Below, piece after piece: positions 4,632-11,875 of a stretch of DNA of 11,875 nt. The DNA comes from Abditibacteriaceae bacterium. GTDB lineage: Bacteria > Armatimonadota > Abditibacteriia > Abditibacteriales > Abditibacteriaceae. The notes under the pieces are model-generated. The model worked only from the letters and a program-made list of their open reading frames with translations. It did no database searches and was not told the DNA's origin. Position 1 is the first letter of the stretch, and each line of letters begins with the position of its first letter. The DNA is taken from positions 1 to 11,875 of the forward strand of contig JANMKN010000034.1 in NCBI GenBank assembly GCA_031372065.1, in the 5' to 3' direction. The position numbers and the translations under genes were made by a program.

Positions 4632-5867
4632 GTGTTTAAGGCATACTGCAATTGGTTACCCAGAAAGAAGCATAGCGTGAACGATTCTATCCCTTCTAAT
4701 TCAATTGCTTCAGGCACGCCCTTTGGCTCGCTTGATAACGCTTGCGTAGCGCTTATCAAAAGCCTGTCTACGAATAATCGCTTTTATACACTGGCGCCGC
4801 TCGATTCGGGCATCCTTAATGCCGGCACAGTGGAAGACATCCCGCACGACCTGCTGCTGGGCATCGCTTATCCTTGTCTTGAAGATGGCCTCAACGATTT
4901 TTGCGTCATTCGCACTGCGTTTGAAACGTTGGATTTATTTCCTGAAGATAAAGAAACCCGCGCCGAACTGCGCGAAATGATTGACGATGCGCGCCGCACG
5001 CTCATGCGGCGCTTGATGGAACTGCTCGAACGCATTATCGCACGCAAGGCGCACTTTCTCGGCACCGACTTAGAGCAATTCAAAGGCTGGACGATCAAAC
5101 TCATTGAGCAAGGCGTTTCGCGCTACGACATTGACACGGCAATGAAAGTCAATGTTTTCTCCTCCGTTGCTTTGGCGGAACAAGCCCAAGGCATCGCTAC
5201 CTCACCGCGTTATCGCTACGAATTCCACAACAGCGAAAGCGCCGAGCGCATTGCGAGTCTCGAAGGCCGCGATTTTTTAGTGGCTTTGTTTGCCGATGTG
5301 CTGGATAGCGTTCTCGAAGACGACAATTACGCCAACCGCTACGCCTTCGACAAGCATATTTTTCAGCAATTCATCGCTATGCTCTTTGTGGCCTATTCAG
5401 CCACGGATGCGGTTTTCTATGGCACGCACAAAGACGATTATGGGGTCAGCGCCGATAGAAACATGGAAAACACGCCGCTTTATCGCGCTGTCAACATCGA
5501 ACTGCGCCATTTAGCGGGTCTGAGCCTGCCACGCGAAGAAAAAGCGTCGCATCTGGAAGATAACTGGGAATCTATCGCTTTAGCCGAAATCGCCGCGCGC
5601 GAAGGGCTTGATGAAAATCGCCAAGGCGCCCCGCTACCGTATCACGTTTTGCGCGTCCAGCCAGCAGCGGCCAACGACGAAACAATTTTGGCTCCCATTG
5701 CCTCCATTTGCGCCATCGCCCACCAACTCCACAAACGCGACCATAGCAACGAACTGGCGCGTGTGCTGCTCTCCGAAGCCTCACGTTTGGTGCAGGAATT
5801 AAAAATGATGGGCACCCTTTCACCCTTAGCCTACAACCCCGGCGAAGCTGATTTCGACGACAAATAA
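4632..5867 (+). CDS. Hypothetical protein, apparently soluble and helix-rich (start uncertain; GTG 4677 is an alternative)
   Basis: 411-codon open frame 25 nt downstream of the EAL gene on the same strand; no family motif recognised. Confidence 0.75.
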   Translation: MFKAYCNWLPRKKHSVNDSIPSNSIASGTPFGSLDNACVALIKSLSTNNRFYTLAPLDSGILNAGTVEDIPHDLLLGIAYPCLEDGLNDFCVIRTAFETLDLFPEDKETRAELREMIDDARRTLMRRLMELLERIIARKAHFLGTDLEQFKGWTIKLIEQGVSRYDIDTAMKVNVFSSVALAEQAQGIATSPRYRYEFHNSESAERIASLEGRDFLVALFADVLDSVLEDDNYANRYAFDKHIFQQFIAMLFVAYSATDAVFYGTHKDDYGVSADRNMENTPLYRAVNIELRHLAGLSLPREEKASHLEDNWESIALAEIAAREGLDENRQGAPLPYHVLRVQPAAANDETILAPIASICAIAHQLHKRDHSNELARVLLSEASRLVQELKMMGTLSPLAYNPGEADFDDK

Positions 5868-5897
5868 TTAGCTCACTTTGTCCTGCGTATGGATGTC

Positions 5898-6092
5898 ATG
5901 GTCGTCATATGAGCCTCATATGACGACCATATGAACCTCATATGACGACCATATGAGCCTCATATGACGACCATATGAGCCTCATATGACGACCATATGA
6001 GCCTCATATGACGACCATACGAGCCTCATATGACGACCATATGAACCTCATATGACGACCATATGAGCCTCATATGACGACCATATGGTCGT
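5898..6092. repeat. Tandem array of 8 x 22-bp units CATATGAGCCTCATATGACGAC with inverted, palindromic ends
   Basis: Units start at 5906, 5928, 5950, 5972, 5994, 6016, 6038 and 6060, with a final CATATG at 6082. Units 2 and 7 have AACCT; unit 6 has CATACG. GTCGT (reverse complement of ACGAC) flanks both ends. Lies between convergent stop codons at 5867 and 6133. Confidence 0.95.
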
Positions 6093-6132
6093 TAGGATAG
6101 GGCAAAGTTACGGCAGCAAGGAGTTATCTCCG

Positions 6133-7194: not shown

Positions 7195-8253
7195 ATGAGT
7201 CAATTAAAAGTTGCCGTCATCGGCACCGGACGCCGCAAAGAAAAGAAAGACGCGATGGGCTACGCAATGGCCTACGAACACGCCGACGCGTATCAAGCGT
7301 TGGAAAGTTGCAAAATCGTCGCTTGCGCCGACATCGTCGAGGAAAACGCCCAGAACTTCGCCGACAAATACGGCGGCGCGGTGTTTACCGATTACAAAAC
7401 GATGTTAGCCGAAGCCGCGCCCGATATGGTTTCGATTTGCACTTGGATGCATTTGCACGAGCCGATGGTTTTGGACGCGATTGGAGCGGGCGTCAAAGCC
7501 ATTCACTGCGAAAAGCCGATGGCCGATTCGTGGGGCGGCGCCAAGCGCATGGCTCAAGCGGCCAAAGACGCCGGTGTGCAACTGACTTTTAACCATCAAC
7601 GACGCTACGGCGCGCCTTATGTGATGGCGAAACAAATGCTTGAGGCCGGCGAGATCGGCGAGGTGATGCGCCACGAAGTCGAATGCGGCAATATCTACGA
7701 TTCGGGCACGCACTGGATAGATATGCTGTCGTTTTTCAACGGCGAAGTGCCCGCCAAATGGGTGCTGGGCCAAATTGATTATCGCAAGGAAAGTTTGGTT
7801 TTCGGCGCGCATTGCGAAAATCAGCAAGTGGTTCTCACCGAATACGAAAACGGCGTTCCGGCACTGATTATGACCGGCGTGGACAAGAAAATTGTCGGCG
7901 CGTTCAACAAAATCATCGGCACCAAGGGTTTAATGCTCATCGGCGTGCATGGCGGCGCGCCGCTGTGCATTCGTCGCAACGGCGAAACCGATTGGACGGA
8001 TATTGATACGAACGGCGAAAGCATTCACGGCCCCGGCTTCATCCAACGCGCCATTGCGGACGTGGTAAATTGCCTGCAAAGCGGCAAAAAGTGCCAGTTG
8101 GACGCGCAAAATGCTTTAATCGCCACCGAAATCATCTTCGGCGCCTATGAAAGCAGCCGTCGCCGGGGCCGCGTTGATTTTCCACTTGACATCGAAGACA
8201 ATCCGCTGCGCAGCATGGTTGAAAGCGGCGATTTGAAGCCCGAAAAAGAGTGA
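7195..8253 (+). CDS. Gfo/Idh/MocA family NAD(P)-dependent oxidoreductase
   Basis: KVAVIGTG Rossmann start, ACAD, D.VSICT...LH, CEKPMA, NHQRRY and D.GTHWID motifs; AGGAG RBS at 7183-7187. Confidence 0.92.
   Translation: MSQLKVAVIGTGRRKEKKDAMGYAMAYEHADAYQALESCKIVACADIVEENAQNFADKYGGAVFTDYKTMLAEAAPDMVSICTWMHLHEPMVLDAIGAGVKAIHCEKPMADSWGGAKRMAQAAKDAGVQLTFNHQRRYGAPYVMAKQMLEAGEIGEVMRHEVECGNIYDSGTHWIDMLSFFNGEVPAKWVLGQIDYRKESLVFGAHCENQQVVLTEYENGVPALIMTGVDKKIVGAFNKIIGTKGLMLIGVHGGAPLCIRRNGETDWTDIDTNGESIHGPGFIQRAIADVVNCLQSGKKCQLDAQNALIATEIIFGAYESSRRRGRVDFPLDIEDNPLRSMVESGDLKPEKE
8164..8247 (+). repeat. Direct repeat copy 1: 3' end of the oxidoreductase gene
   Basis: 77/84 nt identical to 9493-9576; encodes RGRVDFPLDIEDNPLRSMVESGDLKPEK. 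Confidence 0.95.
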
Positions 8254-8254
8254 T

Positions 8255-8338
8255 GTGTCGCTAAAATCTGTTTTTGGCGACACGTTTTGTTGATATGTCG
8301 CCGCCAACGACATAAAATCAAAACGTGTCGCTAAAAAC
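8255..8338. promoter_or_regulatory. Nested inverted-repeat (operator-like) region upstream of fic
   Basis: TGTCG 8256, CGACA 8278, TGTCG 8296, CGACA 8308, TGTCG 8326. 8270-8289 pairs with 8319-8338 (1 mismatch); TATGTCG-N7-CGACATA forms the inner core; GTGTCGCTAAAA occurs at 8255 and 8325. Confidence 0.65.
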
Positions 8339-8351
8339 GCAAAATGAAAAC

Positions 8352-9464
8352 ATGAGCGCTTTCCAATGGCAAGCGCAACGACCTTATAATTCGTTGCCGA
8401 GTTTGCCGCCAGCGCAAGACCTCGAAACCAAAGCAGTTTTGCGGGCTTGCATCACAGCGCGCGCTGCTTTGGGCGAGTTGAAACAAGCAGCGGAACTGAT
8501 TCCCAATCAGGCGATTTTGATCAACACCTTGCCTTTGTTGGAAGCGCAGGCCAGTTCGGAAATCGAAAACATCGTGACGACAACGGATCGTTTATTTCGC
8601 CATTTGGGACATCAGGAACAAAGCGACCCGGCGACCAAAGAAGCGTTGCGTTACAGCCAAGCGCTTTTGGAAGGCTTTCGCACTTTGCGCGACTTGCCGA
8701 TTCATACGGGGATAGCAGAAAGCGTTTGCAGCCGTATTCGGGGCGTTGATATGCGCGTGCGTCGTGTGCCCGGCACACGTTTAGAAAACGAGTCCAGTGG
8801 CGAGGTAATTTATACGCCACCCGAAGGCGAATCGCTTTTGAGAGATTTGCTGGCGAACTGGGAGAAATTTTTAAACGAAGCGCAATTAGACCCGCTGATT
8901 CGTATGGCGGCGGCGCATTATCAATTTGAGGCGATTCATCCCTTCACCGACGGCAATGGGCGCACAGGTCGGGTATTGAACAGCCTGTTTTTAATTCAAG
9001 AAAATCTGCTGACCTTGCCGATTCTTTACCTGAGCCGCTTTATCATTCGTCACAAAAATGATTATTACCGCTTGCTTTTGGGCGTGACTGCGGCGCAACA
9101 ATGGGAAGAGTGGGTGATTTTCTTGATTCACGGCGTAGAGGACACCGCGCGTTGGACAACAGATAAAATCGCTGCTATTCGCGCCTTAGCATCTCACACC
9201 ACAAATTATGTGCGTGATGCAGCACCGGGAATTTATAGTCATGAGTTGGTAAATTTGATTTTCGAGCGACCTTACTGCCGCATCAGCGATTTGGAAGCGG
9301 CGGGCATCGCCAAAAGGCAGGCTGCTTCACGCTACTTGAAAAAACTGGTCGAAATTGGCGTCGTGGAAGAAAAGCAGTTCGGCAAAGAGAAATTGTTTCT
9401 GCATCCCAAATTTCTTCGTTTGCTGACACGCAGCCACAACGATTTCAGCGACTATGTGGCCTAA
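8352..9464 (+). CDS. fic: Fic family protein adenylyltransferase, class II (SoFic-like) with probable C-terminal winged HTH
   Basis: Canonical [12 protein letters not shown] at 8937-8972; N-terminal inhibitory motif SSEIEN at 8553-8570; PYN.LP.LPP N-terminus; C-terminal [32 protein letters not shown]-like segment. ATG 8352 preferred over GTG 8325, which lies inside the palindrome. Confidence 0.93.
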
Positions 9465-9492
9465 TTCGTTTTGCCTGCTTTGCCATCAGCTT

Positions 9493-9579
9493 CGGGGCCG
9501 CGTTGATTTGCCGCTCGACATCGAAGACAATCCGCTGCGCAGCATGGTTAAAAACGGCGATTTAAAGCCGGAAAAATAG
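9493..9579 (+). pseudogene. Direct repeat copy 2: orphan 3' fragment of the oxidoreductase gene
   Basis: In-frame RGRVDLPLDIEDNPLRSMVKNGDLKPEK-TAG lacking its 5' part; begins 28 nt after the fic stop codon. Confidence 0.9.
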
Positions 9580-9609
9580 GGATGTAGGGCTTTCTGGCGA
9601 TGCCGCTTG

Positions 9610-9659: not shown

Positions 9660-11681
9660 ATGAATTCATCGAACGAATCAAAGCCGCCGGTCAAAGAATA
9701 TGGCATTGACTTGTCTTACTTGCAAAAACCGGCGCGCCCGCAAGGACCATTTTTGCGCTGGCTTTTAGAAGGCCACGCGCCGCAGGGTGAAAGCTCACAC
9801 CGAGCCGTCTCTGCGCATCCGGTCCATCATACACAGCCGTGGCACAAGGTTATGTGTCTGACCGGCGTGGATTATTTTTCGACGCTTGGCTATCAACCCG
9901 GCATTGCGGCTTTGGCAGCCGGTGCGCTTTCGCCGATTGCCACTTTTATCTTGGTTTTGCTGACGCTTTTCGGCGCGCTGCCGATGTATAAACGCGTTGC
10001 CGCAGAAAGTCCGCATGGCGAAGGCTCGATTGCCATGCTGGAGCGCTTGATGTCGCACTGGAACAGCAAATTGTTTGTTTTGTGCTTGCTTGGTTTCGTG
10101 GCAACCGATTTCATTATTACCATCACGCTTTCGGCAGCCGATGCGACGGCCCACATTGTTGAAAACCCGTTCACGCCCCATTTTATGCATGGTCATAACG
10201 TAGGCATCACGCTGTTTTTGGTCATTCTTCTCAGCGCGGTTTTTCTCAAGGGATTCAAGGAAGCGATGGGCATTGCCGTCTTTTTAGTTGTGATTTATTT
10301 GCTGCTGAATACTATTGTGTTGGGTGTCAGCGTGTATCACGTTTTAACTGAACCCCAACACATTCCCGATTGGAAAGAAGCACTATTCAAAAGTCACGGC
10401 AATCCCTTGGCGATGTTAGCGGCCTCGCTGCTGCTATTTCCCAAATTAGCGCTGGGAATGTCGGGGTTTGAAACGGGCGTTGTGGTAATGCCGCTGGTGC
10501 AAGGTGCCCCCGACGACACACCAGAAAAACCCACCGGACGCATTCGCAATACGCAAAAGCTGCTGACCGTCGCGGCTTTAATCATGAGCGTTTTCCTGAT
10601 GCTCAGTAGCTTTTGCACTACCGTTCTGATTCCCGCGCACGAGTTTCAAGCCGCCACAGAATCCGCGCCCGCCGGAGCCGCCAACGGGCGCGCTTTGGCT
10701 TATCTGGCGCACCGTTATTTGGGCGACGGGTTTGGCACAGCGTATGACGTTAGCACAGTGTTGATTTTATGGTTCGCGGGCGCATCGGCGATGGCGGGCC
10801 TTTTGAATGTGGTGCCGCGCTATTTGCCGCGCTATGGGATGGCGCCCGAATGGGCACGCGCCAACCGGCCTTTGGTGCTGATTTTCACGGCGATTGCGTT
10901 TTTTGTCACGATACATTTCAATGCCGACGTGGATAAACAGGGCGGCGCCTATGCGACGGGCGTTTTGGTGTTGATGACTTCGGCGGCCATCGCCGTGGCT
11001 TTGGCAGCGCGCACCCAGAAAAATAAGGGCGCAACGATCATGTTTTCGATCATTACGCTGGTTTTTCTTTATACCACTGTTGTCAACGTCATCGAACGGC
11101 CCGATGGTTTGATAATCGCCAGCTTTTTTATTAGCGTTATCGTTTTTGTGTCGTTTCTGTCGCGCTTCATGCGCACCACGGAATTGCGCGTTGACCGCAT
11201 TGTTTTAGATAAAACGGCGCAGATGTTCATTGATGAAGTCGCGCACCGCGAAGTGCGCATCATCGCTAATAAGCGTCAAGCCGGTGACCCGCGCGAATAT
11301 GCGCTCAAAGAAGACCGCCAGCGCGAAGACAGTCACATTCCCGCTGCCTTTCCGATCTTATTTTTAGAAGTCGAAGTAATGGATGCCTCGGAATTTTCCA
11401 GCATATTGCACATCGAAGGCGTGGATGTAGAAGGCTATCGCGTTTTGCGCGCACAAAGCGCTTCTGTGCCCAACGCCATCGCCGCGTTTTTGCTCTACCT
11501 GCGTGATACAACAGACAAGCGTTCGCACGCCTATTTTAACTGGAGCGAAGGCAATCCCGTCGTTTTCATGCTGCGCTATTTGCTTTTCGGCGAAGGCGAC
11601 ACCGCGCCCGTTACCCGCGAAGTTTTGCGCAAAGCCGAACCCGATGTCGCGCGTCGTCCGATGATTCATGTAGACGGATAA
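9660..11681 (+). CDS. APC-superfamily permease, KimA/KUP-like (possible K+/H+ symporter; family often labelled amino-acid transporter)
   Basis: Roughly 12 hydrophobic helices plus a soluble C-terminal domain; motifs [44 protein letters not shown] track start is GTG 9633; ATG 9660 chosen. Confidence 0.85.
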
Positions 11682-11699: not shown

Positions 11700-11783
11700 A
11701 AAAATGCCTCCGACGCCGTCGGAAGCACTTTAGAAGAGGGAAAAAATGCCTCCGACACCGTCGGAAGCACTTTAGAAGAGGGG
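11700..11783. repeat. Two tandem 42-bp REP-like units, each with a hairpin
   Basis: AAAAATGCCTCCGAC(G/A)CCGTCGGAAGCACTTTAGAAGAGGG(A/G) at 11700 and 11742; stem TGC.TCCGAC / GTCGGA.GCA around a 3-nt loop. Confidence 0.85.
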
Positions 11784-11875
11784 AAAAGTCGTGGCGCGGC
11801 CGGCGGCAGGGGGTGGTGGGAGGAGTAAATTGGGGGGGGAGGGGGGCGGGCGCTGTGTGTAAATGAATTTTTTTG

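Follow-up and report, generated by a model that had tools for sequence, protein, structure and literature searches.

A SoFic gene between two versions of its neighbour's 3' end in an Abditibacteriaceae genome, and an integrase-free scar of the same anatomy at other genes

Introduction

Insertions flanked by long direct repeats have been described for restriction-modification genes: Furuta, Abe and Kobayashi (2010, PMC2853133) reported restriction-modification insertion with long target duplication, in which the repeats often span a start or stop codon and most of the hosts are naturally competent. In the C-terminal displacement of rhs genes (Jackson et al. 2009, PMC2935791), for which Jackson et al. 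proposed a circular intermediate, and when type VI secretion system (T6SS) effectors are displaced (Kirchberger et al. 2017, PMC5361080), incoming DNA takes the place of a gene's 3' end and pushes the old end downstream, where it persists as a relic of variable length. In Escherichia coli, of 60 clones obtained with DNA homologous on one side only, 56 had duplications of 109-950 bp, formed by trimming, recircularisation and a single crossover, and the other four had deletions made by homology-facilitated illegitimate recombination (HFIR) (PMC3240628). Here we describe a 1.3-kb cassette on contig JANMKN010000034.1 (11,875 nucleotides, hereafter the window) of an Abditibacteriaceae bacterium (assembly GCA_031372065.1), in which a fic gene of the SoFic family stands between two copies of the 3' end of a Gfo/Idh/MocA oxidoreductase gene. 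The window is an entire contig (C90) of this source genome, G000, which comprises 6.14 Mb in 410 contigs and is 93.9% complete and 0.08% contaminated.

The locus resembles the insertions of Furuta et al. (PMC2853133) in its small cargo, the lack of mobility genes, a direct repeat of more than 30 bp and an empty site in a relative. Three of the four features that define that class in the available text of the paper were found here, namely an insert shorter than 20 kb without another mobile element, a repeat above 30 bp that is unique in the genome, and a one-copy empty site (G002:C8); the fourth, homologues of restriction and modification genes in the insert, was absent, SoFic being the sole cargo. 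With SoFic here and many non-nuclease genes at other loci as cargo, a link to breakage by restriction enzymes is not needed. A further difference is that, on the pooled evidence given below, the repeats appear to be two alleles and not a copied target.

The push of the old end downstream is shared with rhs and T6SS displacement (PMC2935791, PMC5361080); there, however, a variable toxin tip is swapped on one polymorphic gene family, while here a nearly equivalent tail comes with a distinct passenger gene, gained behind ordinary housekeeping genes. The E. coli experiment shares the variable gene-end duplication around foreign DNA, the single crossover and the absence of an integrase, but it was a laboratory conjugation construct with duplications of 109-950 bp (PMC3240628), whereas the cases reported here are natural and mostly of 27-230 bp. 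The element e14 at icd/icdC likewise brings a replacement 3' end and leaves a stranded pseudogene tail with synonymous differences, but it is a prophage of 15 kb that excises site-specifically (PMC13626634). At our locus the gene appears to be restored by the incoming end and the old end is stranded as at icd, but the 1.3-kb cassette encodes no recombinase. The locus therefore works like the long-target-duplication class, rhs and T6SS displacement and icd/icdC, and is a member of none of them. In the literature searched, in which subscription journals are thinly covered, we found no description of a genome-wide gene-end scar with cargo other than restriction-modification genes, nor of one around SoFic. 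To the known scar, the present analysis adds an allele test and a second fic site.

Results

The duplicated tail of the oxidoreductase gene

The host gene (7195..8253, forward strand) is intact and encodes an oxidoreductase of 352 aa (Pfam PF01408/PF22725), with orthologues at 80-86% nucleotide identity in the same-genus comparison genomes G001-G003. Its end recurs downstream as a direct repeat (8164-8256 and 9493-9585) of 93 nt with 90% identity, a spacing of 1329 bp and zero indels. The first-pass annotation had reported 28 codons with seven mismatches in 84 nt, five of them at third codon positions and four synonymous, without indels and with separate stops; our recount of the coding part returned exactly these figures, the amino-acid changes being F>L, E>K and S>N, and extended the repeat to its full length. 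The upstream copy ends in GAG TGA and the downstream one in TAG, and GATGT follows in both. The repeat matched itself with 128 bits, while 30 codon shuffles gave no more than 29.2, and the segment has only these two copies in the whole genome.

The cassette between the copies holds a palindromic region (8252-8338) and a single open reading frame (ORF), fic. Neither the ORF list nor the Pfam search revealed a recombinase ORF between the repeat copies, in line with the earlier description of an integrase-free insertion. A spacer of 28 nt (9465..9492) follows fic and ends at a putative illegitimate joint (9492/9493), since similarity to the host gene begins abruptly at 9493.

Among the 41 genomes searched for the locus, G002 holds the empty site that the first-pass annotation had suggested looking for, with prs, the oxidoreductase gene and the transporter gene in succession and no fic, while in G001 and G003 the oxidoreductase gene has neither fic nor a relic behind it. 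The downstream copy runs into DNA that aligns with the G002 intergenic region and the start of the transporter gene, and is therefore the displaced resident end, as had been proposed. This relic (9493..9585, forward strand, TAG stop) bears the derived changes F>L, E>K and S>N. Polarised against G001-G003, it has four derived non-synonymous changes, one of them in the terminal codon, and one synonymous change; F>L and E>K fall on residues invariant in five orthologues. The working copy (8164..8256, forward strand), made up of the last 30 codons, the TGA stop and 3 nt, keeps F, E and S as in the G001, G002 and G003 protein, shows three derived synonymous changes, and is probably at least in part of donor origin.

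The same scar at other genes of the genome and of the family

Comparing G000 with itself yielded 427 near direct-repeat pairs, including 164 with two copies only, and 39 of these overlapped a gene end. Twenty loci were picked from the 39 candidates by eye, which makes 21 with the oxidoreductase locus; the 18 candidates left out were mostly tandem paralogues, with about four exceptions (C134, C225, C286, C328). An automatic detector, run with no upper limit on overhang, returned 27 rows corresponding to 25 distinct pairs in the 6.14 Mb.

The host genes include those for an amidase (gatA-like), acetate kinase (ackA), a pseudouridine synthase, SelB and a sigma-54 regulator. The 20 hand-picked loci carry unrelated cargo (IetA/IetS, Imm5, HSDR_N_2, DUF5615, ankyrin, WD40, Gfo and unknowns), often of lower GC content and in either orientation, and none of its 24 proteins matched an integrase. 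Several scars are mirror images at 5' gene ends, and the duplications are mostly of 27-230 bp, with a median of 76. An empty site was found by synteny at two of seven compared loci (the oxidoreductase, and ackA in G002); the remaining five have other downstream neighbours in G001-G003. The scar at the oxidoreductase locus is thus not specific to fic, and is an ordinary instance among about 25.

Run on 2.0 Mb of relatives, the detector gave 10 rows (one in 0.8 Mb of G002, four in 0.4 Mb of G009, two in 0.4 Mb of G012 and three in 0.4 Mb of G011). We judged three or four of them to be real, which corresponds to about 1.5-2 per Mb, against about 4 per Mb in G000; on these tiles the detector worked without the genome-wide copy-number check, and it missed three cases found by hand among the fic loci. 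The scar is thus family-wide and of a similar order of frequency, and a lineage-specific excess in G000 was not borne out by the samples.

Some loci deserve mention on their own. The host gene of C257 (L128, L157, L159) occurs in three states: with cargo and relic in G000, with the same cargo and no relic in G003, and with another cargo and its own relic in G002. From the translations we take the cargo to be nucleotidyltransferase-like in G000 and G003, and a HigB/HigA-like pair in G002; the G003 state is donor-like. The youngest case is a 70-bp gene-start duplication, 100% identical, around an ankyrin gene (L130; G000:C305:11177-12464). An IetA/IetS defence pair stands behind an aldehyde dehydrogenase gene with a 46-bp tail duplicate (L121:2165-5992; G000:C157). 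In G002, a 5'-end duplicate of what is presumably an alanine-racemase-like gene lies 3.6 kb upstream of the working copy (L179:2755-6518).

Pooled comparison of working copies and relics

In 19 of 20 rows at 3' ends, similarity between the copies stops at most 11 nt from the stop codon. Over 17 cases, the copies agree at 435 of 510 bases (85%) ahead of the stop and at 131 of 495 (26%) beyond it. The mismatches at 21 loci are distributed over codon positions 1, 2 and 3 as 46, 27 and 99, and 81 of the 146 differing codons are synonymous. At the seven loci that could be polarised, 39 changes are derived in the relic, and 19 of them are synonymous, against a fraction of about 0.26 expected under neutrality; this excess has p = 0.002 at the observed transition/transversion ratio of about 1, and p = 0.03 at a ratio of 8. 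Among 31 differing residues, only the relic matches the relatives at nine and only the working copy at 20.

The pooled data favour donor alleles over a plain target duplication, and in this way support the earlier proposal that the cassette arrived with a donor allele of the tail. The boundary at the stop codon, the third-position bias and the synonymous changes in the relics, taken together, indicate that the copies diverged as coding sequence before insertion, and that the relics decayed further afterwards.

The SoFic gene and its promoter region

The cassette gene (8352..9464, forward strand) encodes 370 aa from an ATG at 8352, the frame being open from a GTG at 8325. Its product scored 599.2 bits against NCBIfam NF046030 (cut-off 550) and 2.5e-117 against the PADLOC SoFic model, and has the Pfam domains Fic_N, Fic and SoFic-like_C (PF21248, a winged helix-turn-helix). 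An intact Fic catalytic motif starts at residue 196 and an SSEIEN inhibitory helix at 68, both called with consensus patterns that we take to be those of the family. By score, motifs and domains, the gene is a SoFic class II Fic adenylyltransferase. An AS1-type antitoxin gene (47 aa) would have no room within this cassette. SoFic has been reported to AMPylate EF-Tu and to act in abortive-infection defence (PMC12249575; bioRxiv 10.64898/2026.07.09.737422); the protein studied here clears the curated cut-off of this family, and its catalytic motif and inhibitory helix are intact.

The region upstream of fic (8252..8338, forward strand; DNA fold z = -7.0) contains a terminator-like stem (8252-8286), five TGTCG/CGACA half-sites (8256, 8278, 8296, 8308 and 8326) and a promoter with -35 TTGATA (8290-8295), a palindromic 17-bp spacer and -10 TAAAAT (8313-8318). 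A promoter scan by itself is at chance level (one found, 1.4 expected). The combination of the -35 with TGTC-N9-GACA occurs upstream of 65 of the 76 SoFic homologues with enough 5' DNA, against 8 of 1121 control windows. The palindromes are therefore predicted to be the SoFic promoter and likely the operator for its self-repression. SoFic of Shewanella oneidensis is reported to bind the first 100 bp 5' of its own gene, and the TGTC-N9-GACA spacer is a candidate for the bound sequence, which the available text of that report leaves undefined (bioRxiv 10.64898/2026.07.09.737422). An Rfam search of the window gave no match. The terminator-like stem, which coincides with the first palindrome of the likely operator, could shield fic and the transporter gene from read-through of the oxidoreductase gene.

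We considered the palindromes as ends of an element or of recombination, and rejected this since the same arrangement lies upstream of SoFic genes across phyla, repeat-flanked or not. In both fic cases of the genus (G000 and G003) the cassette starts at the outermost half-site, which would fit trimming to the smallest working unit. The first-pass annotation had seen palindromes and fic as a special minimal unit; this view was not supported, because the palindromes are the conserved promoter region of SoFic and insertions of like anatomy carry unrelated cargo at about 25 loci.

Other fic homologues

A close fic homologue (at least 74%) occurs in 5 of 31 genomes of the class. In G003, fic (81-82% at the amino-acid level) is inverted and lies behind a gene that, from its translation, we take to be thrC-like, 22 nt from the stop of that gene. 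On its far side is a 65-bp, 74% identical, frameshifted duplicate of the thrC-like tail, and behind it comes part of the terminator found immediately after thrC in G000, G001 and G002. The suggested survey of close homologues for flanking gene ends thus succeeded at this gene, and failed in G009 and G023, where no flanking repeat was found. The homologue in G009 adjoins a tRNA-Glu gene (L024:5666-7059), and that in G023 lies beside an insertion-sequence-like element and an ORF whose motifs we read as tyrosine-recombinase-like (L025:631-4188). These settings are a possible mobile-element reservoir of fic. The homologue in G021 runs off the contig end. In that genome, a 211-bp element, present again 3.7 kb upstream, interrupts one fic copy (L026:6735-6945), and a second fic fragment breaks off after about 90 codons (L027:5367-5633).

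We also examined 80 distant fic loci, 69 of them with both flanks; 11 scored at least 40 and were inspected by eye. Three were gene-end duplicates (L052, with a run of N nearby; L065; L099), one was L105, two were dispersed-repeat-like (L047, L093) and five were weak. At L105:2677-4419 (Alcanivorax quisquiliarum), fic is flanked by a duplication of 250 bp that seems to be non-coding and takes in the operator half-sites. A mobility specific to fic was rejected, as gene-end duplicates are rare at the distant loci and the same scar occurs with unrelated cargo; fic moves by several routes, and gene-end insertion is one among them.

Neighbouring features of the window

Downstream of the relic lies a membrane-protein gene (9660..11681, forward strand), the next gene after the oxidoreductase in G002. 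Its product matches neither Pfam nor NCBIfam, although it occurs widely in the family, and is presumably a transporter. Directly after its stop, a 42-bp tandem duplication (11700-11787) has a short inverted repeat in each unit. Further upstream in the window, an ORF of 411 aa (4632-5867) has no Pfam or NCBIfam match. Between it and the prs 3' end lies an array (5884-6125) with 8.3 copies of a 22-bp unit made of CATATG-containing 11-mers, which is strongly self-complementary and has no Rfam match; in the read contigs, a loose end and a backward joint fall at this place.

Discussion

The locus combines one homologous end, one sharp non-homologous joint, recipient DNA that was kept and the absence of a recombinase. 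We consider it probable that host recombination inserted here DNA of a close relative in which fic already directly followed the same gene, by way of a trimmed and recircularised fragment and a single crossover. In such a scheme, the donor would be a relative with the cargo right after the same gene, and a fragment containing gene tail, stop and cargo would be cut at a random point inside the gene. The trimmed fragment would be closed to a circle through an illegitimate joint and would enter by one crossover within the 30-230 bp of shared tail, restoring the gene and stranding the other tail behind the cargo, where the relic would decay. As the likeness of donor and recipient would end at the stop codon, similarity between the copies would end there too, and random trimming would make the inner boundary vary. 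Selection would keep insertions at gene ends, as no others would leave the gene functional. ComEC is present in all four genomes of the genus. Non-homologous end joining was rejected as a route, Ku having been found in none of the same four genomes.

Several observations weigh against this scenario. At the oxidoreductase locus alone, the changes in the relic cannot separate a donor allele from a plain duplication: one selected and one decaying copy also yield a third-position bias, so two coding alleles are not needed there, and the earlier claim that both copies evolved as coding sequence is not supported by this locus on its own. Three silent states are common to both copies and differ from G002, so the copies split after G002 branched off and any donor would be closer than G002. 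The donor state, with oxidoreductase and fic and without relic, was not found in the 41 genomes. The loci used for the pooled comparison were hand-picked, only seven were polarised, and the outgroups are other species. A gene-end duplicate stands at only two of four testable close fic homologues of the family and at 3 of 69 distant ones. A perfect run of at least 20 nt is kept in 18 of 22 pairs (sum 616, expected 506), which gives weak support to a single crossover, as it is confounded by uneven conservation. Eleven tyrosine-recombinase matches elsewhere in G000 make help in trans possible. Finally, among the contigs listed for three low-depth DNA runs of one study, in which the junctions are uncovered, none bridges either junction and none contains the 1329-bp joint of a circle; one read contig spans fic at 9154-9450 with zero differences.

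A donor allele could also have entered without a circle, by HFIR anchored in the gene body, its illegitimate joint lying within the resident tail; such a joint would be expected to show 3-10 bp of microhomology to the donor. This route accounts equally well for the stop-codon boundary and the divergence of the alleles; one homologous anchor (the tail) and an illegitimate joint at 9492/9493 are both present, as is ComEC. The joint at 9493 begins with a 10-nt all-G/C run, and GC-rich joints are expected for HFIR; over 18 cases, however, the GC enrichment at the inner joint was not significant (0.61 vs 0.56, p = 0.15). HFIR has been proposed for T6SS effector displacement (PMC5361080), but it normally deletes recipient DNA, which here is duplicated, with the relic continuing into the intergenic region of the empty site, and in E. 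coli four of the 60 clones arose in this way, the other 56 being duplications (PMC3240628). The first-pass annotation had named both routes: we retain the single crossover of a small circle as the best one, and keep HFIR as an unlikely rival.

The donor allele itself is challenged by a true target duplication, in which the resident tail would have been copied during break repair or template switching at cargo entry, giving identical copies of which one was then selected and one decayed. Furuta et al. (2010, PMC2853133) interpreted their insertions in this way, and the model fits the oxidoreductase locus alone (three synonymous changes in the working copy; four non-synonymous and one synonymous in the relic) as well as the 100% identical pair of C305. 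However, it predicts similarity into the intergenic DNA, when base matches fall to 26% beyond the stop and, in 19 of 20 rows, the similarity ends no more than 11 nt from it; it predicts mostly non-synonymous changes in the relics, when 19 of 39 are synonymous; and it leaves unexplained the relic residues that match the relatives (gatA, ackA). We regard it as improbable.

We give a similarly low probability to an eroded integrative element, that is, an integrase-bearing element with a replacement gene end, like e14, that lost everything but fic. The anatomy equals that of icd/icdC (PMC13626634). Homologues of fic in the family lie near a tRNA-Glu gene (G009) and an ORF that we read as tyrosine-recombinase-like (G023). 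Nevertheless, no integrase was found in the cassette or among the 24 cargo proteins of the 20 loci, equally many integrase specificities and clean erosions would be required for about 25 target genes, affected at the 3' or the 5' end and with cargo in either orientation, and the two fic cases are at different genes. An assembly chimera of two strains, with and without fic, is very improbable: the assembly has 410 contigs and no bridging contig was among those listed for the three low-depth runs, but contamination is 0.08%, some relic changes fall on residues invariant in five orthologues, the same anatomy occurs in the separately assembled G003 and G002, and a chimera would not leave the second copy truncated so sharply, 28 nt after fic.

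Insertion of a donor allele by host recombination is thus the reading that we prefer. SoFic would take part in it as cargo and not as mobiliser; as a predicted self-repressing, self-inhibited AMPylating toxin or anti-phage protein, it would probably give the insertion its advantage. More speculatively, gene-end replacement may be a general, cargo-blind and host-run way of gaining accessory and defence genes without an integrase, with dozens of events per genome in the family; the long target duplications of the literature might usually be two alleles, and cassettes might loop out as circles (here of 1329 bp) that re-target the same gene end in relatives. We hold this extension to be possible, though doubtful.

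About 25 dated and oriented insertions, whose tails can be polarised against relatives, form a countable record for testing the origin of integrase-free insertions with long repeats, a question left open in the available text of Furuta et al. (PMC2853133). This record points to donor alleles and host recombination, and not to nucleases of the cargo. The conserved TGTC-N9-GACA is a testable operator candidate for the SoFic family. If the process is general, lone defence genes such as those for SoFic and IetAS would change loci without a mobile element, and island finders keyed to integrases would miss them.

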